Notes under the pieces: generated by a model
The model's input: the letters and a program-made list of their open reading frames with translations, nothing else
Told to the model about the DNA's origin: nothing
Database searches by the model: none
Shown: positions 12,839 to 46,782 of the stretch, in pieces
How positions within the stretch are numbered: position 1 is the first letter of the stretch
How the letters are laid out: each line of letters opens with the position of its first letter
Source: Candidatus Curtissbacteria bacterium
GTDB lineage: Bacteria; Patescibacteriota; Microgenomatia; Curtissbacterales; GWA2-41-24
Assembly: GCA_030647775.1 (NCBI GenBank)
Contig: JAUSJC010000010.1
Location: forward strand, 338,646-402,645
Direction: 5' to 3'
Length of the DNA stretch: 64,000 nt
Program-made: the position numbers and the translations under genes

Positions 12839-14167
12839 ATGAATTTAAAACATATAAGACTTCCTGGTAATTTCTATATCTTAGCTGTCATTTTCGCTTT
12901 CGTTCTAAGGTTTATATTCATGCCATTTTCTGCTCATTCCGACTTTTATGTAATTAATATGTTTCCCAGCTTACTCTGGAGAGAAAATGTAGTTGATATC
13001 CTTTCTTATTCTAGACAAGAAGTAAACAGGCCGGGATTTTCTTATTACCCGCCGCTTACATATTTCACCTTAAGCGTTTTTCAATTCTTATATCAACCTT
13101 TTTCTAATACCTTCATCCCTTGGGTAGACCAATTGAGAAGCTTATACGTTGGAGGCTTCAGGGGAACGGAGGCAGACTACATCAAGCTAGTTGACAATCC
13201 GTTTATTTTTAGAGATATATTTTTGGGGAAAACACCATACCTTATTTTTGATATAGGATGTGTTTTAGCATTAGTAGCTTTTATTAGGCGCAGGTACATA
13301 GACAAAAAAATCGTACTACTTTGGCTCTTTAACCCCGTTTTGCTATACGGAGCATACATCTTTGGCCAGTTTGATATCATTCCGGCTTTTTTTATCCTTT
13401 TGGGATTTTTATTGATAGATAAAAATCCCTCTCTTGGCCTTTTTACAGTTGGAATCGCTGGTGCTTTCAAAAACTATTCCTTTGTCTTTATTATTCCCTT
13501 AGCCGGGATTTATGGAAGATCCTTAAAAGACAAGGCGAAACTCGCTCTAATTGGCTTTGTTCCATCCTTTATTTTCGCAACTCCGACTATTATTAATAGT
13601 CCTAGTGATGCTGTATTTGCATTTTTTAATGGAATTATTCTGCAATCTAAAAGACCCTTAGAAGGTTGGCCTCTTTACTCACAGCTCCTGCGTTATACTG
13701 CTCTGGCTTTTTCTTACTTTTCCATTACTCTACTGTTTTCGTTAACAACAATAAAAAATAAATGGCGATTGTCTGTAGGAGTCTGCTGCATTGCAATTTT
13801 ATTGGTCTTAACCCTCGTACCCAGGACGTCATTCCATTATTTGTTTTGGGCATTCCCGCTAATTATTTTATGGTTCAGGGGTTTTAAGGTTTGCACTTCT
13901 ATACTTTTAATCCAAACAATAAGTTTTGCTTCATATAAAATACTTGCCCCGCAACTGCAAGCCGGGCTTTTTGTTCCGATAAACCCGGATTACTTTCATT
14001 CCCTTCCGACATTCAATTACTTACTTGGGCAAATTATTCCCTATAGAATAATAAGTACGGCAGGGTTCCTTATTTTTCTAAGCCTAAACCTTTATTTGAT
14101 AGCAAGGATAATTTACGAAATTACGTTTAAATCCGAAGTTAGTTTGCGGAAGTTAGGCCGAAGATAA
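12839..14167 (+). CDS. Polytopic membrane protein (possible DUF2029/GT87-like GT-C)
   Basis: About 11 TM helices across 442 aa. Context only; motif assignment weak. Confidence 0.4.
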   Translation: MNLKHIRLPGNFYILAVIFAFVLRFIFMPFSAHSDFYVINMFPSLLWRENVVDILSYSRQEVNRPGFSYYPPLTYFTLSVFQFLYQPFSNTFIPWVDQLRSLYVGGFRGTEADYIKLVDNPFIFRDIFLGKTPYLIFDIGCVLALVAFIRRRYIDKKIVLLWLFNPVLLYGAYIFGQFDIIPAFFILLGFLLIDKNPSLGLFTVGIAGAFKNYSFVFIIPLAGIYGRSLKDKAKLALIGFVPSFIFATPTIINSPSDAVFAFFNGIILQSKRPLEGWPLYSQLLRYTALAFSYFSITLLFSLTTIKNKWRLSVGVCCIAILLVLTLVPRTSFHYLFWAFPLIILWFRGFKVCTSILLIQTISFASYKILAPQLQAGLFVPINPDYFHSLPTFNYLLGQIIPYRIISTAGFLIFLSLNLYLIARIIYEITFKSEVSLRKLGRR

Positions 14168-15845
14168 CGAAGTTATTATTCTCTACTAGAGTCTTATATT
14201 TACTATACATATAATTTGCAAAACCCGGATTACTCAATAATCGCTTTTTGTCAGCCGATGCAAAAATAACTGCCCCCCTCGATCTTAAATACTCAAGGTA
14301 TTCTTCCGATTTTAGTCTGTAACCGTTAACTGGCGGATTATTTTTCCCTTCTATGTCAAAACTCCAGCCATTGCGATTGGAATAATAAATGACTGTCGGG
14401 CCGGAATCCATTGATCCGATTGTTAGATCATCCTGCTTCGTTAGCCTTTGTACTTCTTTCCCTGTTTCAGTTACAAATCTAAATCTGTCGATAGGCCGAT
14501 ATGCCTTAGTAAAAATTTGCGGCAAAGCACTTATACCAATCATCAAAAATATGAACGAATATACAAACCAATTATGCCTAAAATTCTTTGCTGCTTTCAT
14601 GGTTCCTAGTGCGATAAATATTGAGGCAACCGGCAAAAAAGGCAGATTATAATATTCATGTACCATTGAATGCCTATTGAAGATGAAAAAATAAATTGCT
14701 ATGCCAAGAAGCCAAAAGTAAATAAATTTCATTTTTTTATATTTGCTCGCAGAACACCATAGACTATCTGTCCATAGATAAATGCGAGAGCGAATACATA
14801 CTTCCGAGTACCAGGAGTTTTCTGCTCGCTCATGTAAACTTGAAAGAGAATACCGAGGGTTTTTAGCCCTCGGAAGTTTATAGCCGGTAAAAAGACCAAC
14901 CACGAAAAGGACTAGGCCGATGGGAAGAATAACTTGGTTGTAATTCCATCCAAAAACAGTTGCATAATATTTGTAATCTAAAAATAAAGCAGGCCGAAAC
15001 CAATTAGAAAGGGAGAAATTTTCTTGGTTGACCAAAATGTTCGTCTTGGCTACAAAATAGGCATATTGATACCATATTAGGGACGGTAAAAATGAAATTA
15101 ATACATAAAGCAGTGAATAAGAAAATCTGTGCGCCGTTTTTTGGTGTAAAATTAACAAGAGTATGGGGATAACAGTGAAGATAAACGCCGGGATTTTTAA
15201 AAGGGAAGCAACAGAGGCAAGAAGGGCTGAAATAATAAGATAAATCAATTTCTTCTTTTCGTTCCAGATCAAAGCATAAAAAATTGATCCGAGAGATAGA
15301 GTAATCATCCATTGATCGGGCTGAAAACTTCTCGACACCAAAACGGACATGGGGGATAGGCTATAGAACACAACCGTTATCAAGGAAAGCTTCTCCCCGA
15401 TTAACTTTTTAGATATTCTATATAAGAATAAAAAGGAAATGATCCACCCTAAAACAGAAAAAAGTCTTCCGAGTGTTTCATCAACGCCACCGTTTAAGAG
15501 ATATAAAAAAGCAACAGCTGTATTTAAACCGGGGAATTCCAATATATACAAGACTTCTTTTGGTCCATAAAAATTGACCGCAGGCTGCAGGATGTTAAAT
15601 CCTCCGCGGAAAAGGTTTCTAGTAATTTCTGCTGTTTGTACCTGTCTTGACGGCTCAAATTCAAGGAGCGGAATGTTTATTCTCCATAAACGCAGAGAAA
15701 GACCTAATATTAAAATTATTGCAAGAACAACATAATCTTTATTCTGAGCGAAAAAACTCCTGAATTTATGCCGGAGATGAAGCGAATTTTGAGCGAAATT
15801 CAGAGAACTACGACCCTTAGGCCGTGGGAATCTATTTATTTTCAT
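14139..15845 (-). CDS. PMT_2/ArnT-like (GT39/GT83-type) polytopic membrane glycosyltransferase
   Basis: 'LAIILILGLSLRLWRINIPLLEFE' is the N-terminal LRL-W/Y...D/E loop typical of the family. There are 12+ TM helices and a C-terminal soluble domain. The first ~35 codons overlap repeat element copy A, so the true start is uncertain. Confidence 0.55.
   Translation of the reverse strand: MKINRFPRPKGRSSLNFAQNSLHLRHKFRSFFAQNKDYVVLAIILILGLSLRLWRINIPLLEFEPSRQVQTAEITRNLFRGGFNILQPAVNFYGPKEVLYILEFPGLNTAVAFLYLLNGGVDETLGRLFSVLGWIISFLFLYRISKKLIGEKLSLITVVFYSLSPMSVLVSRSFQPDQWMITLSLGSIFYALIWNEKKKLIYLIISALLASVASLLKIPAFIFTVIPILLLILHQKTAHRFSYSLLYVLISFLPSLIWYQYAYFVAKTNILVNQENFSLSNWFRPALFLDYKYYATVFGWNYNQVILPIGLVLFVVGLFTGYKLPRAKNPRYSLSSLHERAENSWYSEVCIRSRIYLWTDSLWCSASKYKKMKFIYFWLLGIAIYFFIFNRHSMVHEYYNLPFLPVASIFIALGTMKAAKNFRHNWFVYSFIFLMIGISALPQIFTKAYRPIDRFRFVTETGKEVQRLTKQDDLTIGSMDSGPTVIYYSNRNGWSFDIEGKNNPPVNGYRLKSEEYLEYLRSRGAVIFASADKKRLLSNPGFANYMYSKYKTLVENNNFVIFGLTSAN
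15741..15837 (+). repeat. Junction repeat element, copy A (long form)
   Basis: ATTCTGAGCGAAAAAACTCC[TGAATTTATGCC]GGAGATGAAGCGAATTTTGAGCGAAATTCAGAGAACTACGACCCTTAGGCCGTGGGAATCTATTT. About 90% identical to copy C except for a 12-bp indel. Confidence 0.8.
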
Positions 15846-17631
15846 ACGTTCTCAATATATTTATCAGTTTGTTTAGTTTCCTTACGTTGCCTTTTCCAAA
15901 GTATTCTTTAGCGAATCTTATTTTGTCCCGAGAAACAAAGTCCAGCCGCGTTTCTTTTAAAAATGCTACCAATCCGAGCTGTAAATCATTTTCTGATAAT
16001 ACGGAGAATGATCTATCAAATTTTCCAACACCGAACATGTCCGTTTTATTGTAAGGATTGAAAAATACGGTAGGCTTCCCTGATAGCAAAGAATACACAC
16101 CCGCTGTGGTATTTTCAAATATTATGACGTCTGCATCTTTAAGTGCTTCATTCAAAGAATTAAAATCGGAGAATTTGCATTTTTGAGGATATTTATTAAC
16201 TAAAGCAGTAAAATTTCTTCTATTTTGGAATGGGTGGAGACGGATAGAAATTTCAACGTTAATGTCCGAGTTTAAAAGTAAAGAAAAAAGCCTTTTTTCC
16301 CAGTAAATTGTTAACCCCGGATCAAAGTAATGGATAGTAGCGAGAAATAATATTTTAATTTTGTCAGGCTTTTGGCTTTTGGAATTAACTTCAATGTTGG
16401 TGTCAAAAGGGGATTCCCCAATCAATACCTTTTTTTTACCAAGAGGCCTTCCGTCATTCGTGTAAAAGTTTGAAAAAAAAAGTTCACTTGTCTTCTTGCT
16501 CCATAAAATATGTTTATTGCTTAGAGGTAAAGGGTAGGGGATAGGTGCAAGACTTCCTCCATGTTCAATGGATATCGTTTCTACTCCTGCCTCTTTTGCC
16601 CCGGAGATAAAAGTTAAGCATTTAGTATCAGGATCGGTAAAAGTTACTAATAAATTTATCCCGGATCCTGTTATTATTTTTCTAGCTAGAATTATATCCG
16701 CGCCGATTTCTCTGAATTCATTTCTTATTACTTGTGAAATTTTAGCCTTTATAAATTTACTTGCGAATTTATCTTCGTCAAATCTAGGGTGAGAAAATTT
16801 ATTCCAAGCATGCTCTTTTATCAGATGGGATTCTATAATTTTTGATTCTTCCCAAATCTCTTTATCGTAAAGTCTTTCTTTTTCCCAAAACTCACAAGTG
16901 AAACTTTTTAACACTTTTCTTTGAGAAAAAGTAAGTCCATATGTTAAAAAAATAACGTCCAGTCCTGATTTTTTAATGTCACTTATAAATTCCTCCATTT
17001 CTAAAAATTTTGAAGGTGGAATAAGCATTAGGATTTTCCCGTTTCTAATCTTGTTTCTCTTAAGCCCATTGAGGAATTTATAGATGTTACCGACAGATTG
17101 TCTCAACTTAAATTCTCTTCTACTATTAATTGATATTTTTCTATATTTTATATTTTTCTTTCTACTAAGAAGAAAAAAGGCATGGGGAATTAAAGTGCCG
17201 TTATTAATACTATACCCGGGGTAATCTTCCAATCCAAAAGTAATTATTTTTTTTGGTTTAAAATAGTTAATTACTTTTTCACCAAAATCATAACTTCTTT
17301 CGAAATCTTGTAAAAAAAATCCTATTCTGTCTCTTACGTATTTATAATATTCATTACCAAGTTCACTATAAACGATTTTAAAATTATCTATGAAATATTT
17401 GGCGCCGCCGCTATAACCGTCCTTTGATATGAATTTATATAAGGGATTTTTCCACCCGGGGATATTTTTTTCAAGATAAAACTCAGCTTCTAGGGAAATA
17501 GCAAGATATATTTTATTTTGAGCGAAAATCAAAGAACCGCGGCCGAAAGATCGTGGGAATCTATTGTTACCAACCAGCGAAAGAGCCGTCCTTGCTTCTT
17601 CTTCGGTGCTTACTATTATTAACGTACCCAT
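15832..17631 (-). CDS. Large GT-B-like transferase (TagF/capsule-type), candidate nonulosonic-acid transferase
   Basis: 599 aa. C-terminal half 'KIKILFLATIHYFD...RLHPFQN...IIFENTTAGVYSLLSGKPTVFF' resembles CDP-glycerol glycerophosphotransferase / capsule transferase folds. Lies immediately downstream of the NulO biosynthesis genes. N-terminus overlaps repeat copy B. Confidence 0.35.
   Translation of the reverse strand: MGTLIIVSTEEEARTALSLVGNNRFPRSFGRGSLIFAQNKIYLAISLEAEFYLEKNIPGWKNPLYKFISKDGYSGGAKYFIDNFKIVYSELGNEYYKYVRDRIGFFLQDFERSYDFGEKVINYFKPKKIITFGLEDYPGYSINNGTLIPHAFFLLSRKKNIKYRKISINSRREFKLRQSVGNIYKFLNGLKRNKIRNGKILMLIPPSKFLEMEEFISDIKKSGLDVIFLTYGLTFSQRKVLKSFTCEFWEKERLYDKEIWEESKIIESHLIKEHAWNKFSHPRFDEDKFASKFIKAKISQVIRNEFREIGADIILARKIITGSGINLLVTFTDPDTKCLTFISGAKEAGVETISIEHGGSLAPIPYPLPLSNKHILWSKKTSELFFSNFYTNDGRPLGKKKVLIGESPFDTNIEVNSKSQKPDKIKILFLATIHYFDPGLTIYWEKRLFSLLLNSDINVEISIRLHPFQNRRNFTALVNKYPQKCKFSDFNSLNEALKDADVIIFENTTAGVYSLLSGKPTVFFNPYNKTDMFGVGKFDRSFSVLSENDLQLGLVAFLKETRLDFVSRDKIRFAKEYFGKGNVRKLNKLINILRTYENK
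17516..17565 (+). repeat. Junction repeat element, copy B (short form)
   Basis: TTTTGAGCGAAAATCAAAGAACCGCGGCCGAAAGATCGTGGGAATCTATT. Confidence 0.75.
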
Positions 17632-17638: not shown

Positions 17639-18199
17639 TTAAATTTTAATGCCGAAAAGGTCGCAAAAGTCTTTCTTAAGCACGCCGTATTTCAATATAT
17701 CGGCATATGACCCATGCTTGTAGAGTTGTTCTTTCAGTCGACCTTCCTCTTTCATTCCTAAGAATTTCGCCAATTTCTGCATCCCGATATTATGCTGTGA
17801 AGTTCCACAGTAGATTCTGTGCAGATTCATTTCAGAAAACCCGTGTTTCACAAGCAGTAAAGAAGCTTCCTTTGAGTAGCCTTTATTCCAGTAATCTTGC
17901 TCCCCGACTATAATGGCAAATTCTGCGTTCTTATTAGTATAGTCAATACCCTGAAGCGCGATATTCCCTATGTGAATTTCCTTCCCTTTCAAAATGATTG
18001 CCAACACTATTGCATCCCTAGTTTTTTTTGAGGCATTTATATATGCGAGCCCTTCCGCCACAGAATAAGGGAAAACATGGTGAGAATTAAATTCGCACAC
18101 TTTTTCATCATTCAACCATGAAACGTAATTGCCTTTTAAATCTTCCTCCGTTAGTCCTCTTAAATAAATATGTTCACCTTCTAAAAATACGTTTTTCAC
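17639..18199 (-). CDS. GNAT N-acetyltransferase (PseH-like candidate)
   Basis: 'FAIIVGEQDYWNKGYSKEASLLLVKHGF' and 'HRIYCGTSQHNIGMQKLAKFLGMKEEG' are GNAT motifs A/B (RimL-like). Confidence 0.65.
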   Translation of the reverse strand: MKNVFLEGEHIYLRGLTEEDLKGNYVSWLNDEKVCEFNSHHVFPYSVAEGLAYINASKKTRDAIVLAIILKGKEIHIGNIALQGIDYTNKNAEFAIIVGEQDYWNKGYSKEASLLLVKHGFSEMNLHRIYCGTSQHNIGMQKLAKFLGMKEEGRLKEQLYKHGSYADILKYGVLKKDFCDLFGIKI

Positions 18200-19503
18200 T
18201 TAAGTTCCTCTTTGTATTTCCAGACTTTTTCAAAGGCCCTAACTACGTCGTCAAGGTCGTCTCTCGTCATGGGCGGTTTAAAAAGCTCATTATTTATAAG
18301 AACATTATCATAACAACTTTCAGCAACCGGACAAATACCTTTGTCGTATTTTACTCCACTTTTGTTCCAAGGACTGTTCCATGGCCATCCCGCCGATCCA
18401 ATCGCAATCTTATTTTGAAAAAGAGGCAACAGATGGATTGGTTTTATGTAGCCTTTACCGAGTGTTACACCTTCGTCAGTCCTTTTTTCGTACGGCAGAA
18501 GTTCTGCCTTAACCGCATCTACAAAAACATCCCTGTGAACTCCCGCAATTTCCGAAGAGTACTGCAGTGGTTGGTAATAATAGCTGTGCGTACAATCCTT
18601 TCTTACTTTTCCTAATTTTATGCATGGAATATTTTTTAAACCCTGGGAAAGATATTCCACATTAGTCCGCCTTTCTTCTACAAGTGGCTTGACCTTTTTT
18701 AATTGTTCTTTGCCAATAGCAGCCGTAATTTCAGTCATTCGGAAATTAAAACCAACCATATTTACTAAAGTCTCAAAGCCGCCTCTCCCATCGATTACAG
18801 CTTCTGCATGATTCCTTATCATTCTTGCTCTTTCGGCAAATAAATCGTTATCGGTTACTATTACGCCTCCCTCTCCTGTATGGATATGTTTGTGGAAATT
18901 CAAGGAATGAATGCCTATGTCTCCAAGTGTACCGGCGTATTTCTTTCCATAGTTTGCAAAAATCGCCTGTGCAGCATCCTCAATCACAACGAGTCCACGC
19001 TCTTTAGCAAGCTTATTGATATTTTTGGAATCGTAAGGAAGACCAAAAAGGTCAACAACTATAATTGCTCGGGTGTTTTTTGTAATTCTTTCTTCAATTG
19101 ATTTGGCGGAAAGACAAAAAAAATCTTCTTCTATGTCAGCAAAAACCGGAATAGCTCCATAAAAGAGTGGAGCCGTAGCGGAGCAGCTCATAGAGTAGGG
19201 AGTTACAATTATTTCGTCGCCAGGGCTTGTGCCGATAGCCCCGACAGCGCATATTAATCCTGACGTAGCTGAATTAACTACGATTGCATGTTTTACTCCG
19301 AAATACTTTGACCATTCGGTCTCAAAAGATTTGGCCTCTTCGCCGCCATAGAATCTCGCGTGTTGGGCACCGATATATCCGGAAAGCCTGCCGGATTTGA
19401 AAACACGCAAAACTGCCTTTTCTTCCTCCGTCCCAAAATTGTTATATGCCGGAAAGTTTTTGTTCCTGATTTTCCTTCCGCCATTAATCGCTAGTTTTGC
19501 CAT
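18196..19503 (-). CDS. DegT-family PLP aminotransferase (PseC/LegC-like)
   Basis: 'VNSATSGLICAV', 'TPYSMSCSATAP', 'VIEDAAQA'. Adjacent to the other NulO genes. Confidence 0.75.
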   Translation of the reverse strand: MAKLAINGGRKIRNKNFPAYNNFGTEEEKAVLRVFKSGRLSGYIGAQHARFYGGEEAKSFETEWSKYFGVKHAIVVNSATSGLICAVGAIGTSPGDEIIVTPYSMSCSATAPLFYGAIPVFADIEEDFFCLSAKSIEERITKNTRAIIVVDLFGLPYDSKNINKLAKERGLVVIEDAAQAIFANYGKKYAGTLGDIGIHSLNFHKHIHTGEGGVIVTDNDLFAERARMIRNHAEAVIDGRGGFETLVNMVGFNFRMTEITAAIGKEQLKKVKPLVEERRTNVEYLSQGLKNIPCIKLGKVRKDCTHSYYYQPLQYSSEIAGVHRDVFVDAVKAELLPYEKRTDEGVTLGKGYIKPIHLLPLFQNKIAIGSAGWPWNSPWNKSGVKYDKGICPVAESCYDNVLINNELFKPPMTRDDLDDVVRAFEKVWKYKEELK

Positions 19504-20609
19504 TTTTGGTTTTCGATGTATTTTACAATATTTTCAATTGGGCTCCTAATATAATCAAATTTGGATAATCCAAGCGTACCGTTTAAAGCCGCTGCAAGTT
19601 CTTTCTCAAGTTCCAGCCGATTTACAACCGGTTTGATCAGCCCTTTTTTAACAAGCAAAAAAGGGCTATCTCCTCTTAAACCTATTTGCACACAGATGAC
19701 CGGCTTTTTAAGAATTATTGCTTCCAAAATAAGCATGGATGAAATTGATATCACCGCGTCACTTTGTGTGATCTGCTCCCATGAATTCGATCCTCTCACA
19801 ATTTTTATCTTCAAATTTTTACTCAAATACTGCTTTTTGATGGGTTCGTATTTTCTCCTCTTATCTTTGGGATGAAGTTTGATAATAAATTCGATATCCT
19901 TTCTGGTGGATATGCTTATTTTACTAATAATCTCAAGCAACAGCCCCGTTATTTTCAGTTCATTGTAGATTAAAAATTTATCCAAGACCGCTTTACCTTT
20001 GAAAAAATCGAAAAGAGGCTCCGAAGCAAATAACAACCTAACTTTGCTATCGCCAAATCTTTGATTTACCACCTTTTGCAAAGACTTCTTTTCAAGAAAC
20101 TCAAAATATGGCTGGCCCATTACTTCAATTAAATTCGAGGGAATACCTTCTTTTGCCATCTCTTCACTCGTCGTCTCATCCATAACAAAAATTTTAGTAG
20201 GGAAGAAAATGAGAGCTTTATTTTTTTTGTATTTCCCAATTGACCTAAGAGTATATTTTGAAAAACGGATCCCCAAATTTGTCCAATGATCGAGTATTGC
20301 AATGGAAGGTATTCCTAAAGAAGCGCTTACTCTCCAAAAATATTTTTCACTAAATTCCTCCGAATTAGTACCGGTAATCACCAAGAAAGGCTTCTTCCCG
20401 ATTAGGAATTTTTTTAAACTGGCTTCGTTAACTGGTCCTATGGATTTTGTTATATCTCGGCAGACAATACCTAATTTTTTAAAACCACGAGTAGCAAAAT
20501 CTTTTCCGTAGACTTCGACCTTGTAGTTACTTTTAGTAAGGGCCGAATATAAAGGTGCAATAGCGTTTGCGCCGCCGGTATCCCTAGCAAACAACAACAC
20601 CTTTTTCAT
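19491..20609 (-). CDS. GT-B-fold UDP-sugar hydrolase / 2-epimerase-like (PseG/NeuC-like)
   Basis: 'KLHPKDKRR' (HP motif) and 'ISISSMLILEAIILKKPVICV' resemble the WecB/NeuC C-terminal region. Position inside the NulO module. Confidence 0.45.
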   Translation of the reverse strand: MKKVLLFARDTGGANAIAPLYSALTKSNYKVEVYGKDFATRGFKKLGIVCRDITKSIGPVNEASLKKFLIGKKPFLVITGTNSEEFSEKYFWRVSASLGIPSIAILDHWTNLGIRFSKYTLRSIGKYKKNKALIFFPTKIFVMDETTSEEMAKEGIPSNLIEVMGQPYFEFLEKKSLQKVVNQRFGDSKVRLLFASEPLFDFFKGKAVLDKFLIYNELKITGLLLEIISKISISTRKDIEFIIKLHPKDKRRKYEPIKKQYLSKNLKIKIVRGSNSWEQITQSDAVISISSMLILEAIILKKPVICVQIGLRGDSPFLLVKKGLIKPVVNRLELEKELAAALNGTLGLSKFDYIRSPIENIVKYIENQKWQN

Positions 20610-21553
20610 TATTTAAACTTGAAGCAAGACTGAAGAGTTTTGTAAGCTTCCTCTCCGGTACATTTAAGCTGACTATTTCCCTTTAAAAACTCGTAAATGT
20701 TTTTAGAGGCAAATAGCATCGACTTATCTTGCGAGGTGTTGATCTCTTCCGACTTTGTTAAGTTTTTATAACCGCTAAATACCGAATTTTCTTTTATACC
20801 AAATTCTTCGATCATAAATTTGGAGTCGTCTATTTTAATCCTTCCTTTTTCAAATAACAGATCCATTTCAAATATCGTGTAGAGTCGGCAGTCAAGTGCG
20901 CAAATCGCAAAATTTGATCCGCTTTCGAGCTTTAAAATACCGGACAAGCTTGGATCTTTTACACTGTAGTCAAAAATCCTCTCATACACAGTAATGTCTA
21001 CAATTTCACCTACAAGATACCTTAGTAAATCAATCATATGGGAACCGTTATGGATAAGCCCTTTTCCATAAATGCCCGTCCCTTTTACAAATTTCCCGAA
21101 GCGCGGAATCCGCAATTTTAAAAACTCAAATTCCGGGATGTATCTGCGCGTATAATTGACAGCAATCGGGGTGCCCCTCTTTTTGTAAAGATCGAGAATT
21201 TTTTTCGCTTGAACGTCTGATGACGCAAGTGGTTTTTCTGCAAAAACTAACTTAAAATTGTAAGGTAGAAGTTCTTTGAGTACTTCAAAATGATATTCGT
21301 CATCTACGGCCTCACAAACAACGTCTATTTTATTTTTGTTAAAAGCCTCACCAATTGTTTTGAACGCCAATCCTCCCCAAATTGAACTTGCTTTCCTGGC
21401 CTTTTCAAAATCCCGGTCGACAAAACCTACAAGATTAAATCCGTTTTGAGAAAATCCGTGCGCATGTGAAAGAATATTTTTACTTTTGGGGTCATCAATG
21501 AAAGCACCGATTCTACCTGATCCAACGATTAAAACATTAAAATTCTTTGACAT
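20609..21553 (-). CDS. Gfo/Idh/MocA-family NAD(P)-dependent oxidoreductase
   Basis: N-terminal 'NVLIVGSGRIGAFI' Rossmann motif and 'EKPLASS' motif. Confidence 0.7.
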   Translation of the reverse strand: MSKNFNVLIVGSGRIGAFIDDPKSKNILSHAHGFSQNGFNLVGFVDRDFEKARKASSIWGGLAFKTIGEAFNKNKIDVVCEAVDDEYHFEVLKELLPYNFKLVFAEKPLASSDVQAKKILDLYKKRGTPIAVNYTRRYIPEFEFLKLRIPRFGKFVKGTGIYGKGLIHNGSHMIDLLRYLVGEIVDITVYERIFDYSVKDPSLSGILKLESGSNFAICALDCRLYTIFEMDLLFEKGRIKIDDSKFMIEEFGIKENSVFSGYKNLTKSEEINTSQDKSMLFASKNIYEFLKGNSQLKCTGEEAYKTLQSCFKFK

Positions 21554-21558
21554 AAATT

Positions 21559-22299
21559 TTATCTGGCTGATCTTTGTACAACATTTTTATTGATAGCGGC
21601 AATTTCGGGATGTGTATCCAAATATTTTATTACGTCGAGTGACGTAAAATTCTTATTCTTCATATAAAAATGCTTGTAAATTGCACAGATAAACTCGTAG
21701 TCCTGTTCAGTGTCCATCGTCCATCTTAAATCGGGACGGCAAAGTTCTGGTTCGGAAAGCAAATTAAATAATTTAAACTTTTTGGGATTTTCGTAAACAC
21801 TTAAGAAGAGATGCTCGTGCTGTGGTTTGTCTTTGGCAATCATTAGCGACTCCCGCAAGACATCAAGAGATGCTACCTGTACATCAAGTCCAATCGGGTA
21901 AGAACGTACAAGTTTATTAGAAATGTAATCAATGTCATTTGCCAGATAAATTTTTACCATGCGATCAATTATTTGAGGATCGAGAAGAGGATTATCTCCC
22001 GTAAGCTGTACCACGATATCGGCATTTTCCGCCGTCATCGCCTTCGTTACCCGCGAAACGACATCTTCTTCACTTCCCCGGAAATACCCGATGCCTAGTT
22101 TTTTTGCACATTCGACAATTACATCATCAGTCCTGTTTTCAGTAGTTGCCACAACGATCTTATGGATAACTTTGCTTCTTTTAACCCTTTCCACCAAAAG
22201 TTCTAATATGGGTTTACCTACACAAGGCAACAAAACCTTACCAGGTAGCCTGGTTGATGTCATTCTGGCTTCAATTGAAGCGACTACTTTTTTGATCAT
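21559..22299 (-). CDS. CMP-nonulosonic acid synthetase (acylneuraminate cytidylyltransferase family)
   Basis: 'MIKKVVASIEARMTSTRLPGKVL' is the canonical N-terminus. 'TGDNPLLDPQIID' follows. Start trimmed to this Met; the ORF track extends 107 aa further, overlapping the divergent gene. Confidence 0.7.
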   Translation of the reverse strand: MIKKVVASIEARMTSTRLPGKVLLPCVGKPILELLVERVKRSKVIHKIVVATTENRTDDVIVECAKKLGIGYFRGSEEDVVSRVTKAMTAENADIVVQLTGDNPLLDPQIIDRMVKIYLANDIDYISNKLVRSYPIGLDVQVASLDVLRESLMIAKDKPQHEHLFLSVYENPKKFKLFNLLSEPELCRPDLRWTMDTEQDYEFICAIYKHFYMKNKNFTSLDVIKYLDTHPEIAAINKNVVQRSAR

Positions 22300-22345
22300 G
22301 ACTAGGCTCATAATTATTAATATGGTAATATTACCATATTGGCAA

Positions 22346-23704
22346 ATGGCTATGATATCAGATTGGGACATAGGGATAAAGGCACAATCAGTTTTAGAAA
22401 AGCAGGTTAATATGCTTTTACCCCCCCTTTTTCCTTTAAACAGAAGTATCAGCGGTTCCGGCCTCAGGAAAACTCTAAATACTCTTAAAAAAATAACCGA
22501 CTTCGATATTATAGAAATTCCATCGGGTACCAAATGTTTCGATTGGACGATTCCCGAGGAGTGGAACGTAAAAGAAGCGTATATTGAGGATTTAAAAGGT
22601 GAAAAAATTATAGATTTCAAAAAAAATAATCTTCATTTAGTAAATTACAGCACTGCTCAAGATAACATTTATACTTTCGATCAGCTTAAAAAGCATCTTC
22701 ATACTTTACCCAATATGCCGGACGCCATACCTTATAGAACATCTTACTACCAGAAATCATGGGGTTTTTGCTTTGCCTACGATGATTTAAAGAAATTCAA
22801 AAAGACCCAAAAATATCATGTCAAAATTGATGCCTCTTTTAGAAATGGCAGTATTACCATGGGAGAAAAAAAAATATGTGGAAAATCAAAAAAAACATTT
22901 TTGATAACAACATACGCCTGCCATCCTTCAATGGCCAATGATAATCTCTCCGGATTAATACTTTGGATTCTGCTTTTGAAAACACTATCTTCCAGGAAAA
23001 CTCATTATTCTTATAAATTTATAATTGGACCAGAAACAATTGGAGCAATTGCGTTTCTTTCAAAAAATAAGAAATTACTAAAAGACGTTATTGGTGGTTT
23101 TGTCCTAGCTACTCTTGGAGGATCGGGCAAATTCGGCTACAAGCAAACGTATTTGGGCGACCATCTTATTGATTCTGTCATCAAGAAATCCTTTAAGGAT
23201 CTAAATGTCGATTTTATTACATACCCCTTTGATTTAAACGGCAGTGACGAAAGACAATACTCTTCACCATTCTTCCGTATTCCTATGGCAAGCGTAACCA
23301 AGGATAAATATTATGAATACCCTGCTTATCACACGTCAAAAGACGACTTATCATTTGTAAAATCTTCTCACATAATAAGCAGTTTAAAAATATACTTAAA
23401 AATAATTGAAAATTTGGAAAACAGCAAAATATATATAAGTACCCAGCCAAAATGCGAACCAATGCTCTCAAAACGTGGGCTTTATCCTAAAATTGGGGGA
23501 TCATTTAACCCAAAAGGGATAAAAGGTAATACTATATACGGATATGACGTGAAGGAGATAAACACAATTCGCGCCTTATTATTTTGGTCGGACGGCGAAA
23601 GCTCTCTGGAGCAAATCTCGCAAAAAACTGGAGTACCAATCACTCGTTTGTTTGAAGCGACTAAAAAGCTGGAAAATATTAATCTCTTAAAAGAAGTAAA
23701 ATGA
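22346..23704 (+). CDS. DUF4910/aminopeptidase-like (UCP015244-type) protein with C-terminal winged helix
   Basis: 'RSISGSGLRKTLNTL', 'YACHPSMANDNLSGL' (M28-like metal site) and C-terminal HTH-like 'SLEQISQKTGVPITRLFEATKKLENINLL'. Start chosen at Met 'MAMISDWD' to avoid divergent overlap. Confidence 0.45.
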   Translation: MAMISDWDIGIKAQSVLEKQVNMLLPPLFPLNRSISGSGLRKTLNTLKKITDFDIIEIPSGTKCFDWTIPEEWNVKEAYIEDLKGEKIIDFKKNNLHLVNYSTAQDNIYTFDQLKKHLHTLPNMPDAIPYRTSYYQKSWGFCFAYDDLKKFKKTQKYHVKIDASFRNGSITMGEKKICGKSKKTFLITTYACHPSMANDNLSGLILWILLLKTLSSRKTHYSYKFIIGPETIGAIAFLSKNKKLLKDVIGGFVLATLGGSGKFGYKQTYLGDHLIDSVIKKSFKDLNVDFITYPFDLNGSDERQYSSPFFRIPMASVTKDKYYEYPAYHTSKDDLSFVKSSHIISSLKIYLKIIENLENSKIYISTQPKCEPMLSKRGLYPKIGGSFNPKGIKGNTIYGYDVKEINTIRALLFWSDGESSLEQISQKTGVPITRLFEATKKLENINLLKEVK

Positions 23705-24495
23705 AAATCCTTTTTATCGGAGGCAACCAAATAAGGCATTTATATGTAGCAAATGCAATTAACTCCGAAATAACTCTGTCAGGAGCGATTTTGCAACAAA
23801 GAGGTAGCTTGATACCAAAAACACCAGATGGACTGGAAGATATAGACAGAAAAAACTTCATAAGGCATTTTAAAGAGAGGGAAGAGTGTGAGTTACGATA
23901 TTTCCAAAAACAAAAAACCTTACCTTGTCCCACAATCACAATCGACGACATCAGTAAAAATTCGGGAAAATTACTAAATTTCTATGAAAAAATTAAGCCC
24001 GATGTAGTTTTTATTTTTGGGTCCGGAATGATAGGCAACCCTCTTTTTTCAAAGCTCCCCCGAAAAACTATCAACATGCATCTAGGGCTTTCACCAAGAT
24101 ACAGGGGTTCTGCTACTTTATTTTGGCCTTTTTATTTCTTGGAACCCACTTATGCCGGTAGCACGTTTCATTTTATTAACCAAGAGCCGGACGCCGGTGA
24201 CGTAATTCATCAAGTCCGGCCTTTCCTTGAAAAAGGCGACGGAATCCATGACGTCGCTTGCAAAGTAGTTCTAAAGTCGGCAGAGGAAGCGATTAAGCTT
24301 CTAAAAAAAATGGAGGGGAAAGATATAAAAGGCGTAAGACAAAAAAATACAGGTAAAAAATTTTTAACAACGGATTTTAGACCCGAACACTTAAGAGTGA
24401 TCTATAACCTATTTGAAAATAAAATTGTTGACTATTACCTTGAAGGTAAATTAAGATGCCGTACTCCTAAGTTGGTTGAAACAATTTTTGCCTAA
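23701..24495 (+). CDS. Formyltransferase (Fmt/ArnA-N-like), candidate sugar N-formyltransferase
   Basis: 'NMHLGLSPRYRGSAT' matches the formyl_trans_N HxSLLPxxRG motif. 'EPDAGDVI' follows. Confidence 0.6.
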   Translation: MKILFIGGNQIRHLYVANAINSEITLSGAILQQRGSLIPKTPDGLEDIDRKNFIRHFKEREECELRYFQKQKTLPCPTITIDDISKNSGKLLNFYEKIKPDVVFIFGSGMIGNPLFSKLPRKTINMHLGLSPRYRGSATLFWPFYFLEPTYAGSTFHFINQEPDAGDVIHQVRPFLEKGDGIHDVACKVVLKSAEEAIKLLKKMEGKDIKGVRQKNTGKKFLTTDFRPEHLRVIYNLFENKIVDYYLEGKLRCRTPKLVETIFA

Positions 24496-24502
24496 ATTCT
24501 CT

Positions 24503-25552
24503 TCAAATTAAATCCCAAGTAATGGTAGTGTCTGCGGGAATATCTGCTTTTGCTTTGCGCCCGACAACGATGTCGATAAATTTTGGAGGAATACCCATTC
24601 CCGGCCTTTTACCAATTAGCATGTCTTTCGTTATTTTAGTATCTTTCTTAATATCGACGAGCGATGTTACAGATCTCCTTGCAAATCTTTGAGCTTCCAT
24701 CTCAGATTCTACCGGCTCTTTCAACCCTTTCCCAAGGCTTTCTTCGGCGAGCCGGACCGCATCAACCAGCTGCTTCATTTCGGCCGGATCAACCCCCAAT
24801 TGGTGGTCAGGACTGTCAGGCAAAGTCTTATCTGTTGTAAAGTGTTTCTCAACTATTCTTGCGCCTCTCATTACCGCAAAAGCTGGAGTCAGAGGGCTAA
24901 AGGTATGGTCGGAAAATCCAATTGGAATCTCCGGAAACAAACCCCGGAGTGAATCTATCATCAGGAGATTTGCATCATCGGCAGCCGTCGGGTAGCTTAA
25001 GATACAATGAAGAAGGATAATTTGGTCGTTCCCGCATTTTTTAATAAAATTCACCGCTTCTTCTATCTCACCAATTGTCGCCGCTCCTGTCGACATAATA
25101 ATCGGTTTACCCGTTTTCGCTACTTTCGAAAGAAGTGGGAAGTAAATAATATCAGCCGAAGCGATTTTATAGGCAGGAACATTAATATCTTCAAGTAGAT
25201 CAACGGCTTCAAGCTCAAATGGAGTTGAAAATAAGATGATGCCAATTTCTTTCGCATAATCCATCATCTTCTGGTAATTATTTTCCGGCAATTCATCCAA
25301 AACGGAAAAGGTTTCATATTGGGTCTTGCCGTCATTAGGCCCTACGTGCCAATATTTTGGCGCTTTTTTGGTAACAAGTCTCTCCGCAGTATAATTCTGG
25401 AATTTAATAGCATCGCATCCAGCCTCTTTGGCAAGCCGAATATGGTCTTTTGCTCTTTCCAGTTCCCCGTTGTGGTTAACTCCGGCCTCCGCAACTATAA
25501 AAACCGGTTCATTTCCCCCGATCTTCTTACCGCCAATTTTTATAGTCTTCAT
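24503..25552 (-). CDS. NeuB-family nonulosonic acid synthase (PseI/LegI/NeuB-like)
   Basis: 'FIVAEAGVNHNGELERAKDHIRLAKEAGCDAIKFQ' NeuB N-terminal signature. C-terminal SAF/antifreeze-like domain. Confidence 0.8.
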   Translation of the reverse strand: MKTIKIGGKKIGGNEPVFIVAEAGVNHNGELERAKDHIRLAKEAGCDAIKFQNYTAERLVTKKAPKYWHVGPNDGKTQYETFSVLDELPENNYQKMMDYAKEIGIILFSTPFELEAVDLLEDINVPAYKIASADIIYFPLLSKVAKTGKPIIMSTGAATIGEIEEAVNFIKKCGNDQIILLHCILSYPTAADDANLLMIDSLRGLFPEIPIGFSDHTFSPLTPAFAVMRGARIVEKHFTTDKTLPDSPDHQLGVDPAEMKQLVDAVRLAEESLGKGLKEPVESEMEAQRFARRSVTSLVDIKKDTKITKDMLIGKRPGMGIPPKFIDIVVGRKAKADIPADTTITWDLI

Positions 25553-26568
25553 AAAAGCTGTGGAATTTTGCTAATCATCTTACTTATCTCGCCATCGCTT
25601 AGTAAGTCAACTGAATCTGATGTGAATTCTTTTGCCTTTAAAATTTTCTTAAAGGTTGGGTACTCAAAACTTTTGAAATCATTAATATCCGAAAGCAGTA
25701 TAAACATCTTTTCATTTTCAAGGGCACTAGCAGCTTCATTGCCAGTTAGAAGGCTTTCATGTATTTTTTCGCCTGGCTGTAAGCCGATATAACTATACTT
25801 AATATTTTTATTGATTTTATTTTTTTTGCAAAATGCTGAAACAAATACTTTTATAAGATTCTCAATTCTAACGCTAGGCATTTTTAAGATAAAAACTTCC
25901 CCTCCCTGCATGATTTGCACTGACTCAAATATTAACCTGACGGCCTCATCAATAGACATCACAAAACGGGTCATGTTTTTATCGGTGATTGTTACTGGCT
26001 TGCCGTTTTCAATCTGGCTCTTCACTCTAGGCAAAATAGAGTTTCGCGATCCAAGTACATTCCCAAACCTTACGGATGCCAATCTTATCCTCTTATTCCC
26101 CCTGTAAAAATTCCCTGCCGCCGTTAATCTTTCCGCGAGCAGTTTTGTTGCACCAAGTGTACTATTGGGTTGGGTTGCTTTGTCGGTTGAAATTGTAATA
26201 ACTCTCTCGACATTTTTTTCAAGAGCGACATCAATGATATTTTGGGTCCCGATAACATTAGTTTTAACGGCTTCAAACGGGTTATATTCGCAAAAAGTTA
26301 CGTGTTTAAGCGCAGCGGCATTAAAAACGATATCGACATCATCCATGGCAAGCCTCAATCTTTCCTTATCTCTGATGTCACCAATCAAGGGTCTGACATT
26401 ATTTGGAAAGTCGATAGAAAAGAGAAGGTCCTGCAATTTTGTCTCGTCGCGGCCGAGTACCCTTAAATGCTTCGGTTTATGCGCTAAAGCTTGCCTAACA
26501 ATTTCGGACCCAATTGATCCCGTTCCGCCGCAAACCAAAATGTTTTTCCCTTCAAGTATATTTGTCAT
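25549..26568 (-). CDS. UDP-GlcNAc 4,6-dehydratase (PseB/CapD/FlaA1-type, Polysacc_synt_2)
   Basis: 'KNILVCGGTGSIGSEIVRQ' and 'GATKLLAERL' YxxxK region. First gene of the NulO module. Confidence 0.7.
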   Translation of the reverse strand: MTNILEGKNILVCGGTGSIGSEIVRQALAHKPKHLRVLGRDETKLQDLLFSIDFPNNVRPLIGDIRDKERLRLAMDDVDIVFNAAALKHVTFCEYNPFEAVKTNVIGTQNIIDVALEKNVERVITISTDKATQPNSTLGATKLLAERLTAAGNFYRGNKRIRLASVRFGNVLGSRNSILPRVKSQIENGKPVTITDKNMTRFVMSIDEAVRLIFESVQIMQGGEVFILKMPSVRIENLIKVFVSAFCKKNKINKNIKYSYIGLQPGEKIHESLLTGNEAASALENEKMFILLSDINDFKSFEYPTFKKILKAKEFTSDSVDLLSDGEISKMISKIPQLL

Positions 26569-26601: not shown

Positions 26602-27468
26602 TTAAAATCTATGACCAAAAATTGTCCTAAGTCCGCGGGTAAGCGTTATCTTTGGAGTCCAGTTAAACTTTCTTTCGGCTTTCTCAAAACTTCCAACAAA
26701 ATATCCTAAATCTGTACTTTTTGCCTCAATAAATTTTGTCTTGAGTTTTTTCCCGCTTACTCTCTCTACCATTGAGACCACCTCATTAATGCTTACTCCC
26801 CGGCCCGAACAAATATTATAAATACTGGTTTTTTCAGTAGAGTTTTTTAATATCACGGCCAACACTGCACTCGCCGCATCACCCACATGCAAAAAATCCC
26901 TAATTTGCCAACCGTCACCGGTAATTACTAGCGTTGAACCTTCTTTAAGTGCTGTCAGAATATGGGTAATCAGAGAATTATCTTTTGGGTTGACGTTTTT
27001 ACCATAAACGTTGGCAAATCTCAAAAGCGTTGCTTTTAAGTCGGTTTTTGGAATTTCGCGAGTTAGATATTCTTCACATAATAGCTTTGACTCGCCATAG
27101 GCATTTCTTGGTTCCAAATCAAAATCTTCACTAACGACTTGGTTTTTTAACGGAGGTTTGTAAACAGCGAACGAGGAAGGAAAAATAATATGTGCGGAAG
27201 GCGAAAATTTGTTCGCTGCCTGAATAATGATCCTTAGGCTTTCAATGTTGAATTTCAATTGAACGGGGTCATTAGATTTCTCTCCAGCCAAATGGACAAT
27301 AAAGTCCGCCTTTTTGATAAGCGGCATTAAACTATTTATTGATCCAAAATTGTGAATGTTCCTATCAAAAAGCCGCACTTCAAAATTCATACTTTTGACA
27401 AGCTTACAGAAATTATTTCCAATAAGCCCATTTGCCCCGGTAACCACAATTATTTTAGCTTTATTCAT
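26602..27468 (-). CDS. NAD-dependent epimerase/dehydratase (SDR)
   Basis: 'IIVVTGANGLIGNNFCKL' Rossmann motif. 'AYGESKLLCEEYL' YxxxK. Confidence 0.65.
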   Translation of the reverse strand: MNKAKIIVVTGANGLIGNNFCKLVKSMNFEVRLFDRNIHNFGSINSLMPLIKKADFIVHLAGEKSNDPVQLKFNIESLRIIIQAANKFSPSAHIIFPSSFAVYKPPLKNQVVSEDFDLEPRNAYGESKLLCEEYLTREIPKTDLKATLLRFANVYGKNVNPKDNSLITHILTALKEGSTLVITGDGWQIRDFLHVGDAASAVLAVILKNSTEKTSIYNICSGRGVSINEVVSMVERVSGKKLKTKFIEAKSTDLGYFVGSFEKAERKFNWTPKITLTRGLRTIFGHRF

Positions 27469-27471: not shown

Positions 27472-28110
27472 TTAAACTTTTTCAAAATATTTACGTATTT
27501 TATCCTTTTCGAGAAGTACTAACTCACTGGGAATGTAACGCGGTTCGGCAGTTATAAAAACCGTTCTTCCCAGCCAGTCTTTTCTGAAAATGGTTCTAGC
27601 ATATAAGATGACTCTAGGCATGTGATAAGCGTCAGTTAAGATAACTAACTTACCCTTTGCCGGCCATTTCCGGGCTGGAAACTTTTTAAACTGGTCTATG
27701 GTATTTTTAATATGTTCTTTCCCGCCCACGGCAATTTTCGTATCTGGAAAACCAAACCGGCTTTTAAAATGATTTTCGCCCTTTAATTTTTGAAGTACTA
27801 TGTTTTGCTCGTCATAGCCGCTAATGTAAATTCCAGGTGCCCATTTTTTTATCTCGCCGAATCCGAGATCACGCCGTCCCGACTTTAAAGACGCGATCTT
27901 AAGCGCAACAAGAATTCCGGTTCTCAGTCTCCTTTTCATTTCAATATCATCACTGTTTTTGAAATCGTCAATCGAAAATTTTGCGCCGGTCAGTACCCAT
28001 ATCAAATTCCAGTCTGGATCAGGACTGGTACTGTGGCTGGTACTAGCCTTGTCAAACTCGTCTTCTATATATTTATCTAAAAATTTCTTGGAGTATCTTT
28101 TTAATATCAT
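27472..28110 (-). CDS. DUF218 (YdcF/ElyC/SanA-like) protein
   Basis: 'LVILTDAYHMPRVILYA' resembles the DUF218 HxPR motif. Confidence 0.4.
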   Translation of the reverse strand: MILKRYSKKFLDKYIEDEFDKASTSHSTSPDPDWNLIWVLTGAKFSIDDFKNSDDIEMKRRLRTGILVALKIASLKSGRRDLGFGEIKKWAPGIYISGYDEQNIVLQKLKGENHFKSRFGFPDTKIAVGGKEHIKNTIDQFKKFPARKWPAKGKLVILTDAYHMPRVILYARTIFRKDWLGRTVFITAEPRYIPSELVLLEKDKIRKYFEKV

Positions 28111-42104: not shown

Positions 42105-42125
42105 TGCTTGGAGATATTTCTTTCA

Positions 42126-46763: not shown

Positions 46764-46782
46764 TAAACAAGTATATTTTAGC

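Follow-up and report, generated by a model that had tools for sequence, protein, structure and literature searches.

The window analysed here is a stretch of 64,000 nucleotides (positions 338,646 to 402,645 of the forward strand of contig JAUSJC010000010.1, GenBank assembly GCA_030647775.1) from a Candidatus Curtissbacteria bacterium, a member of the Candidate Phyla Radiation (CPR, or Patescibacteria). It contains a locus for the biosynthesis and activation of a nonulosonic acid (NulO). The locus is not the textbook pseudaminic acid (Pse) route; it is a mosaic of three independently conserved cassettes, here called A, B and C, one of which (B) is widespread and uncharacterised. An earlier note, made by reading the letters alone, had described nine NulO genes at 17639-26568. 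All nine open reading frames are present at those coordinates and Pfam agrees with the domain labels given to them, but the module does not stop at 26568, because cassette A extends to 28110.

Cassette A runs on the minus strand from 28110 to 24503. Its first gene encodes a 212-aa DUF218-like protein (27472-28110), followed by a 288-aa NAD(P) epimerase/reductase of the extended short-chain dehydrogenase/reductase (SDR) type (26602-27468; Pfam Epimerase, 120 bits), a UDP-GlcNAc 4,6-dehydratase of the Polysacc_synt_2 (PseB/Pen/CapE/PglF/SpsM) family and of a Tyr-to-Leu subtype (25549-26568; 321 bits), and a NeuB-family, SpsE-like NulO synthase with a SAF domain (24503-25552; NeuB 273 bits, SAF 40 bits). 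Cassette B lies 2.2 kb from the NeuB gene, also on the minus strand, from 22299 to 18196. It opens with a CMP-nonulosonate synthetase of the CTP_transf_3 family, SpsF/LegF/PseF-like (21559-22299; 108 bits), and continues with a 314-aa NAD-dependent oxidoreductase of the Gfo/Idh/MocA family, here Gfo (20609-21553; GFO_IDH_MocA N-domain, 55 bits), a 372-aa NeuC/LegG-like protein with the NDP-HexNAc 2-epimerase fold (19491-20609; weak Epimerase_2 and Capsule_synth matches), and a 435-aa long-type DegT aminotransferase with an intact pyridoxal phosphate (PLP) lysine (18196-19503; DegT_DnrJ_EryC1, 258 bits). A 186-aa GNAT N-acyltransferase (17639-18199, minus strand; Acetyltransf_3, 80.6 bits) is a frequent fifth gene of this cassette. 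Cassette C is a plus-strand pair, comprising a 452-aa M28-like protein with DUF4910, DUF2172 and HTH_47 domains (22346-23704; 266, 119 and 43 bits) and a 264-aa long-type N-formyltransferase, Fmt (23701-24495; Formyl_trans_N, 36 bits).

The nine genes thus form two minus-strand blocks (17639-22299 and 24503-26568) separated by the plus-strand pair (22346-24495), which is divergent from the CMP-transferase gene and convergent with the NeuB gene. Junctions between genes are tight, as is typical of operons, with overlaps of 1-14 bp or gaps of 3-33 bp. Beyond the GNAT gene the minus strand carries a 599-aa protein (15832-17631) and then, as the last gene of the operon, a 568-aa membrane glycosyltransferase of the PMT_2/GT-C type (14139-15845).

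That the locus encodes NulO biosynthesis and activation, as the earlier note held, is confirmed. Judged by its sequence, the synthase is unambiguously a NeuB-family enzyme, because it scores 272.6 bits to NeuB and 40.1 bits to SAF, both above the Pfam cut-offs, against at most 25 bits to DAHP synthase models. A synthase of the KDO-8-P/DAHP type, which the note had named as the outcome that would count against its claim, is therefore not what lies here. In alignments to solved NeuB-family proteins the SDHT and EKHFT motifs are kept, in line with the metal and PEP motifs of the NeuB superfamily. Candidates are present for all six generic steps of a NulO pathway, namely dehydratase, transaminase, N-acyltransferase, NDP-sugar hydrolase/epimerase, synthase and CMP-transferase.

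The kind of NulO is a different matter. The check that the note had proposed, with profiles for the Pse, legionaminic acid (Leg) and Neu enzymes, came out negative, in that every one of the nine proteins stays below the curated cut-offs of the NCBIfam equivalog models for Pse, Leg and Neu. For Pse the scores are 305.9 bits for the dehydratase (PseB, TIGR03589; cut-off 407.75), 197.3 bits for a partial match of the long DegT (PseC, TIGR03588; 423.5), 23.5 bits for the GNAT (PseH, TIGR03585; 93.1), 300.7 bits for the synthase (PseI, TIGR03586; 340.25) and 31.3 bits for the CMP-transferase (PseF, TIGR03584; 205.7), and no PseG-type UDP-sugar hydrolase was found in the module. The best model of the synthase, NeuB_NnaB (LegI/NeuB, TIGR03569), gives 334.1 bits against a cut-off of 399.65; LegB gives 63 bits to the dehydratase (cut-off 475) and LegC (TIGR04181) 169.3 bits to the long DegT (cut-off 420). 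FnlA, a further NCBIfam model, scores 199 bits to the dehydratase. Among solved structures in the PDB the best match of the synthase is B. subtilis SpsE (237 bits), followed by C. jejuni PseI (191 bits) and N. meningitidis NeuB (159 bits). A separate reference comparison gave 234 bits to SpsE and 188 bits to C. jejuni PseI, where the PseI-type synthases of five related loci described below (L086-L088, L090 and L091) reach 280-327 bits to the latter; by these scores the window synthase is SpsE-like rather than PseI-like. The CMP-transferase matches 6oew (150 bits) and then KdsB enzymes, and the best PDB matches of the GNAT are of the SpeG type.

To place the genes in context, about 170 related loci (numbered with an L prefix) were compared by tblastn, phmmer and a custom hidden Markov model (HMM). 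They were drawn from a GTDB scan with a NeuB alignment, from a metagenome scan, and from the surroundings of genes homologous to those for NeuB, the 372-aa protein and the long DegT.

Cassette A is syntenic in L001-L006, with dehydratases 54-58% and NeuB proteins 69-76% identical to those of the window. In L001 and L002 it is accompanied by a CMP-transferase, and no DegT is found within 10 kb. The SDR and DUF218-like genes lie upstream of the dehydratase gene in every close relative. A separate DUF218-like homologue is directly upstream of the SDR in L001, and DUF218-SDR fusions of 477-492 aa are directly upstream of the dehydratase and NeuB genes in L002/L003 (7483-8961), L004 (7524-8957) and L006 (~7514-8947), which argues that the DUF218-like domain and the SDR work on the same intermediate. 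A DUF218 gene also adjoins NeuB in L091. The DUF218-like protein itself falls below the Pfam cut-off (DUF218, 21.9 bits), gave chance matches only (E > 0.1) in a PDB profile search and an uninformative single-sequence AlphaFold2 model (predicted local distance difference test score, pLDDT, 34.4).

In the PDB the dehydratase matches Pen (6bwc, 272 bits), PseB (2gn4, 224 bits), CapE (208 bits) and PglF (167 bits). Its motif STDKA...LGATK has the pattern T-x9-Leu-x3-K. The Tyr position is taken by Leu or Met in the window and in L001-L006, and keeps its Tyr, in the form YGATK, in loci with PseB and PseC. The triad T-x9-L-x3-K resembles that of SpsM, PglF and CapE, although the stereochemical outcome cannot be read from it. 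The SDR has the GxxGxxG and S...YxxxK motifs, scores 118 bits to GalE and 52 bits to the WbcJ-type 4-ulose reductase among NCBIfam models, and 86 bits to GalE-like and 52 bits to Pal structures. It always adjoins the Leu/Met-type dehydratase in L001-L006 and would be its C4 keto-reductase partner, a proposed role; the dehydratase/SDR pair is also seen in loci lacking any aminotransferase. A Pen/Pal-type pair is a minor possibility only, given the low score to Pal and an Asp-Lys pair in the dehydratase that is absent from Pen. Two further differences separate the pair from the two-SDR systems CapE/CapF/CapG and Pen/Pal: its SDR lacks the cupin domain of CapF, and its product would pass to a NeuB enzyme.

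Cassette B has the gene order CTP_transf_3, Gfo, 2-epimerase-like, long DegT (~434 aa), often followed by GNAT. The same order is found in L026, L086, L088-L091 and most of L092-L171. Counts were taken from 80 metagenome loci seeded on the family of the 372-aa protein, independently of NeuB, with the loci that had enough flank as denominators. The 2-epimerase-like gene is immediately preceded by Gfo in 53/55 loci and immediately followed by the long DegT in 56/58. A CTP_transf_3 homologue is detected by HMM in all 40 of the cassette loci with enough upstream flank, directly upstream of Gfo in 31 of them, and NeuB is within 10 kb in every one of the 16 loci with both flanks of at least 8 kb, 10 of which also have a GNAT. 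The note had seen the oxidoreductase as a non-canonical extra that might tailor the sugar; it is instead a fixed member of a four-gene cassette, and an oxidoreductase beside LegF is normal in characterised Leg clusters (PMC4481668). The cassette is widespread; the family of its marker, the 372-aa protein, comprises 1,677 representative clusters at E <= 1e-30, and the long DegT is 58-68% identical to members of a large family of ~434 aa that includes Actinobacteriota, Eremiobacterota, Bacillota and Patescibacteria.

The Gfo protein has GSGRIG and EKP motifs and a weak match (33 bits) to an archaeal UDP-GlcNAc 3-dehydrogenase. L079 has two Gfo paralogues, only one of which is of the cassette type; the window protein is 32% identical to it over the full length, and 20% identical over 91 aa to the second. 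The 372-aa GT-B protein folds like the 2-epimerases NeuC/LegG and not like PseG. Foldseek matches include the WbpI-like epimerases 8sxw and 8sxv, and PseG is absent from the matches. The long DegT keeps its PLP lysine and carries insertions specific to its family. Its PDB matches are led by an unnamed DegT (8gyh, 165 bits), the Kdo8N transaminase KdnA (5k8b, 149 bits) and perosamine synthases (~140 bits), and include WbpE (3nu7); H. pylori PseC (2fn6, 113 bits) ranks 20th. A literature search on 8GYH found no paper.

Three contexts of cassette B bear on its function. In L086, L087, L088 and L091 it accompanies a Tyr-type PseB, a short Lys-bearing PseC-like DegT and a PseI-type NeuB. In the window, L004, L006 and L089 it accompanies a dehydratase, an SDR and an SpsE-type NeuB. 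In L079, L090 and 6 of the 16 long-flank loci there is no PseB-like dehydratase. The long DegT appears unlikely to perform the PseC/LegC step, because it coexists with a short PseC-like DegT or occurs without any dehydratase. L087 (1735-10341, Lachnospiraceae) is a compact eight-gene operon of Gfo, epimerase-like protein, long DegT, PseB, CMP-transferase, short DegT, PseI-type NeuB and GNAT. Its Pse set is complete only if the epimerase-like protein replaces PseG, so Gfo and the long DegT are surplus to it.

Some observations on the wider distribution and neighbours of cassette B may be recorded here. Through L087 the cassette is seen to occur in gut Bacillota as well. In the patescibacterial L086 (1817-13395) cassette B occurs with PseB, PseC, a PseI-type NeuB and a GNAT, alongside a thiolase, a ketoreductase and a FemAB-like acyltransferase; the thiolase and ketoreductase would supply 3-hydroxybutyryl groups, and the gene content matches a 3-hydroxybutyryl, extra-aminated Pse derivative like the sugar of T. 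maritimum. A triad of a GNAT (~185 aa), a ~405-aa protein and an Amidase-family protein (~460 aa) lies near or downstream of the cassette in L004 (3373-6516), L079 (17481-20643) and L090 (11302-14507), and is absent from the window.

Cassette C consists of DUF4910 and a long-type formyltransferase (264-278 aa). In the window the two genes overlap by 4 bp and are translationally coupled. Strong Fmt homologues (>180 bits) sit in DUF4910 loci in six cases out of six, immediately downstream of DUF4910 in five. In more than 12 metagenome loci the DUF4910 gene immediately precedes cassette B, and in L121 and L122 it interrupts the cassette. The note had treated DUF4910, like the oxidoreductase, as an add-on; it belongs to a conserved cassette, and its link to spsE/spsF neighbourhoods was published in 2014 in a structure paper on the founding member, CA_C2195 (PDB 3k9t), which proposed a sugar-modifying role, transacylation or amidase (PMC4000134). 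All three domains of the window protein are above the Pfam cut-off, as expected for a family member, and it scores 365 bits to 3k9t. It shares with CA_C2195 the three-domain architecture, the ligands of the single zinc (His189, Asp195 and His324), Ser191 and Pro225 in place of the M28 catalytic residues, and spsE/spsF homologues nearby (PMC4000134). The C. acetobutylicum neighbours are an ATP-grasp ligase and N-acetyltransferases, whereas the window DUF4910 gene is coupled to a formyltransferase.

Fmt scores 35.9 bits to Formyl_trans_N (cut-off 26.1). Its similarity to solved sugar N-formyltransferases is low, with 32 bits to the ArnA N-domain and 22 bits to PseJ, and the long type appears specific to DUF4910 loci; the Asn-His-Asp triad is nevertheless common to all. 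In the alignment to the ArnA N-domain the NMH and DAG motifs of Fmt fall on the triad residues, which we take to be N102, H104 and D140 of ArnA. Because the triad is retained, an N-formyl substituent, suggested in the earlier note, is plausible. The DUF4910 protein would be an N-deacylase that enables re-acylation. In L090 genes for PIG-L, Formyl_trans_N and ATP-grasp proteins adjoin NeuB. The NulO cluster of Kuenenia, for which formylated CMP-NulOs are reported, has a deacetylase/formyltransferase gene pair and two legF genes, with deacetylation and formylation at the level of the CMP-sugar (bioRxiv 10.64898/2026.04.20.719630). Together with the exclusive pairing of DUF4910 and Fmt, these two cases lead us to favour, as a hypothesis, deacylation followed by formylation.

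Sister loci appear to have an alternative to the DUF4910-Fmt cassette. In L002/L003 (11830-14449) and L088 (12980-15603), HisH/HisF-like amidotransferase genes and an unannotated protein of ~375-395 aa adjoin the NeuB and CMP-transferase genes. This set presumably resembles that for acetamidino substituents of NulOs.

Our preferred reading, to which we give a probability of about 0.45, is that the region from 28110 to 14139 is a surface-glycan sub-locus in which the three cassettes serve to build a non-canonical 9-deoxy NulO, to activate it with CMP and probably to transfer it. The backbone would come from the dehydratase, SDR, epimerase-like hydrolase, SpsE-like synthase and CMP-transferase, with amination by Gfo and the long DegT and N-acylation or N-formylation to follow; pseudaminic acid is not the predicted product. 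The Polysacc_synt_2 enzyme, assigned to its family by sequence, would convert UDP-GlcNAc to a UDP-4-keto-6-deoxy-HexNAc, whose 4-keto group the SDR may then reduce. The 372-aa protein, given its fold, may release UDP, perhaps with epimerisation at C2. The synthase would condense the free sugar with phosphoenolpyruvate, and the CTP_transf_3 enzyme would yield the CMP-sugar, both as expected of their families. Gfo would next oxidise a remaining secondary hydroxyl of the NulO, most likely on the CMP-sugar, and the long DegT would transaminate the resulting ketone, a step proposed from the distribution of the cassettes. GNAT, Fmt or both may acylate the new amine. DUF4910, with its conserved single-zinc His/Asp/His site and a gene translationally coupled to that of Fmt, may remove an N-acyl group so that a formyl group can replace it. 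The 599-aa protein and the GT-C enzyme might then use the CMP-sugar, although the indications for this last step are weak.

The placement of amination after condensation follows from cassette B. Gfo and DegT are invariantly coupled, which suggests that the ketone used by the long DegT is produced by Gfo. Since the cassette occurs with PseB and PseC, with a dehydratase and SDR, or with neither, an additional amino group is probably introduced by this pair once condensation has taken place. If one regiochemistry holds in all contexts, the target would be a hydroxyl that is free in all of them, which after condensation leaves C8 and C4 of the NulO; in the window C7 is free as well. C3 of the hexose is ruled out, since it ends up at the position of the ring oxygen. 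Precedents exist both for extra amino groups and for late modification. A 5,7,8-triamino-pentadeoxy NulO occurs naturally in Flexibacter (Tenacibaculum) maritimum (PMC3210612), and the aciABCD genes beside a Leg module are predicted to turn CMP-Leg5Ac7Ac into acinetaminic acid (PMC5595891). A more specific proposal, which we consider somewhat unlikely as a whole, is that cassette B is a widespread device that aminates a CMP-NulO at the C8 hydroxyl, as in the T. maritimum sugar, or at the C4 hydroxyl, giving extra-aminated NulOs in Patescibacteria, Actinobacteriota, Bacillota, Ignavibacteria and archaea, that it acts here on a 7-hydroxy-9-deoxy backbone from the dehydratase and SDR, and that DUF4910 is the missing N-deacylase for a dedicated Fmt.

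Several points weigh against our preferred reading. Every step beyond the family assignments is deduced from synteny. The argument for amination after condensation assumes one regiochemistry everywhere, and also that genes lying side by side contribute to a single sugar. Inside the window module no DegT other than the long one bears the lysine, so that the simplest course would be direct amination of the dehydratase product by this enzyme. With its weak similarity to known 4-ulose reductases (52 bits to the WbcJ-type model), the SDR could be an epimerase or a Pal-like partner instead, and the DUF4910 protein is without the conventional M28 catalytic residues. Gfo, a 2-epimerase, DegT and an acetyltransferase are also the enzyme set WbpB/WbpI/WbpE/WbpD, and WbpI-like epimerases are among the Foldseek matches of the 372-aa protein.

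The point about the sole DegT leads to the simplest alternative, a legionaminic acid route, UDP-linked and like that of the B. subtilis sps genes, which we regard as unlikely, though more probable than the two alternatives that follow. Here the long DegT would aminate C4 (the LegC/SpsC role), GNAT or Fmt would acylate N4, the NeuC/LegG-like protein would hydrolyse and 2-epimerise, and the SpsE-like NeuB and CMP-transferase would finish the product, Leg5Ac7Ac or Leg5Ac7Fo. On this view Gfo would have an accessory part like that of PtmF, and the roles of the SDR, DUF218 and DUF4910 proteins would be peripheral. Several results fit. JGI labels close homologues of the window NeuB as N,N'-diacetyllegionaminate synthase, and the hydrolase candidate suits the LegG/NeuC fold. 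In B. subtilis the acetyltransferase SpsD is of the GNAT type and the SpsF-type CMP-transferase is similar in kind to that of the window; SpsG is PseG-like, whereas the 372-aa protein has the 2-epimerase fold. SpsE is the closest solved synthase, the intermediates are UDP-linked, and SpsM, the first enzyme of that pathway, shares the T-x9-(M/L)-x3-K subtype (its own motif being T-x9-M-x3-K) and can be replaced by PglF or by Pen plus Pal, but not by PseB (PMC7439481). Two steps of the note's reasoning fall with these data. It had taken a GNAT rather than an LbH acetyltransferase to indicate a Pse-type route, although the B. subtilis Leg pathway uses SpsD, so Pse and Leg cannot be told apart on this ground; and it had named a non-inverting, PglF-type dehydratase, together with the lack of a NulO product, as speaking against its claim, although a retaining PglF-type enzyme leads to legionaminic acid, itself a NulO (PMC7439481). 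In the characterised Leg clusters of P. shigelloides, V. fischeri, E. coli and C. coli (LegF-PtmF-PtmE-...-LegI-LegG-LegC; PMC4481668, Table 5) an oxidoreductase of ~320 aa (PtmF, ~326 aa) comes right after the CMP-synthase, and a NeuC-like LegG and a DegT are in the cluster, as in the window. Unlike these clusters, the locus described here has no PtmE, PtmA, LbH-type LegH or LegB, and its DegT is of the long, ~434-aa type as compared with 382 aa (PMC4481668). The reported sps pathway does not list a Gfo, a long DegT, an SDR/DUF218 partner, a DUF4910 protein or a formyltransferase (PMC7439481). The LegC and LegB scores given above (169 and 63 bits) are below their cut-offs, the long DegT is found together with short PseC-like DegTs and also without any dehydratase, and its coupling to Gfo (53/55 loci) suggests that it receives a keto substrate made by Gfo. 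Also counted against a Leg route are the SDR, which this dehydratase subtype is never without, even in loci that have no DegT, and the large difference between the two L079 Gfo paralogues.

For the pseudaminic acid route that the note preferred, the PseB-like dehydratase, DegT as PseC, GNAT as PseH, the GT-B protein as PseG, NeuB as PseI and the CMP-transferase as PseF would lead to an N-formylated Pse such as Pse5Ac7Fo. The canonical PseB/C/H/G/I/F pathway of H. pylori and C. jejuni does share with the window the six generic reaction types and the Pfam family of the dehydratase, PseB and PseC are the top NCBIfam matches of the dehydratase (306 bits) and the DegT (197 bits), Pse5Ac7Fo is known (PMC11040635), and so is a formyltransferase of the Pse pathway, PseJ (PDB 6ci2). 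Yet Fmt has only 22 bits of similarity to PseJ, all six Pse models out of six are under their cut-offs (among them PseH with 23.5 against 93, PseF with 31 against 206 and PseC with 197 against 423), the synthase is not PseI-like, the dehydratase has Leu for the Tyr of PseB, and the GT-B protein is NeuC/LegG-like, with PseG not among its matches. We consider this route very improbable. A division of the genes between two sugars of the same glycan is improbable as well. Only the dehydratase, SDR, NeuB and CMP-transferase would then serve the NulO, and Gfo, the 2-epimerase-like protein, long DegT and GNAT would form a WbpB/WbpI/WbpE/WbpD-like route to a UDP-2,3-diacetamido-2,3-dideoxy-hexose. The Wbp pathway comprises the same four enzyme classes, and like KdnB/KdnA (Kdo8N) it follows an oxidise-then-transaminate logic; both pair a Gfo/Idh/MocA protein with a DegT. 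The second-best solved match of the long DegT is KdnA (5k8b), WbpE is also a match, WbpI-like 8sxw and 8sxv appear for the 372-aa protein, and the match of Gfo to the archaeal UDP-GlcNAc 3-dehydrogenase, though weak, points the same way. Unlike the Wbp and KdnB/KdnA systems, cassette B is always linked to NeuB and CTP_transf_3 (16/16 and 40/40 loci, the latter adjacent in 31/40), which is not expected of a generic UDP-sugar pathway. L087, moreover, would be left without a UDP-sugar hydrolase and a second acetyltransferase, and on chemical grounds a 3-amino hexose cannot be a pyranose-forming substrate of NeuB.

The sub-locus lies within a larger glycan super-locus (window ~0.3 to 55 kb) of GT2, GT4 and GT-C glycosyltransferases, methyltransferases, a Wzm/Wzt exporter and dehydratase/transaminase pairs. 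The 599-aa protein next to the GNAT gene, a weak candidate for the NulO transferase, has a C-terminal part weakly related to the 2-epimerase/GT-B family. It has no Pfam match, its NCBIfam scores are far under the cut-offs (LIC12162, 27 bits; TIGR04396, 22 bits), and a weak homologue lies directly after the CMP-transferase gene in L001 (E 6.5e-10). The PMT_2 protein (53.6 bits) has a 41% identical homologue at the same position in L001, and its syntenic partner, a 442-aa polytopic membrane protein on the plus strand (12839-14167) with no Pfam match, has a 54% identical homologue beside the PMT_2 gene of that locus.

A perfect 20-bp palindrome, ATATGGTAATATTACCATAT (22320-22339), lies in the 46-bp gap between the divergent CMP-transferase and DUF4910 genes. 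It occurs once in the window, where 0.02 copies are expected by chance, and in none of the 91 related loci searched; it may be an operator. Promoter and terminator scans of the window were at chance level (55 against 52.6 expected and 18 against 15.2 expected, respectively), and because of this no operon boundaries were drawn from them. No tRNA and no Rfam match was found in the window.

Further sugar genes are present on both sides. A short DegT of 397 aa on the plus strand (11633-12826) first seemed the more PseC-like of the two, with a full-length PseC match of 243 bits (NCBIfam RfbH, 233 bits). It is rejected as a true PseC, since His replaces the PLP lysine. It also reads GVGG instead of GEGG, and we take the two changes together to be the pattern of ColD/RfbH(E1)-type dehydratases (3-dehydratases dependent on pyridoxamine phosphate), a hint that another part of the glycan contains a 3-deoxy sugar. 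On the other side, all on the minus strand, are the Wzm/Wzt ABC exporter (41352-42908), a DegT (42905-43999) that pairs with a LegB/RmlB-like SDR (44000-44983), a GalE-like SDR (45689-46666), and an RmlB-like dehydratase (51291-52280) with a WecE-type transaminase (52724-53863; 406 bits, cut-off 375). These sugar modules at 41352-54593 could also feed the NulO pathway; that their DegT and SDR genes, 17-27 kb away, could do so is a further point against the pathway as we propose it.

NulOs cap bacterial surface glycans and influence how hosts, phages and immune receptors recognise the cell. If our preferred reading is correct, ultra-small CPR bacteria, which are thought to live attached to other cells, invest in a complex surface sugar of the sialic acid kind; in the literature searched, no paper joins NulO and CPR/Patescibacteria terms. 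Cassette B would be a general tailoring module that annotation has overlooked, and would indicate which genes underlie extra-aminated NulOs; a search of the literature on 8-amino NulOs turned up no biosynthetic route. DUF4910, an orphan family with a solved structure, would gain a testable function as a deacylase coupled to a formyltransferase.

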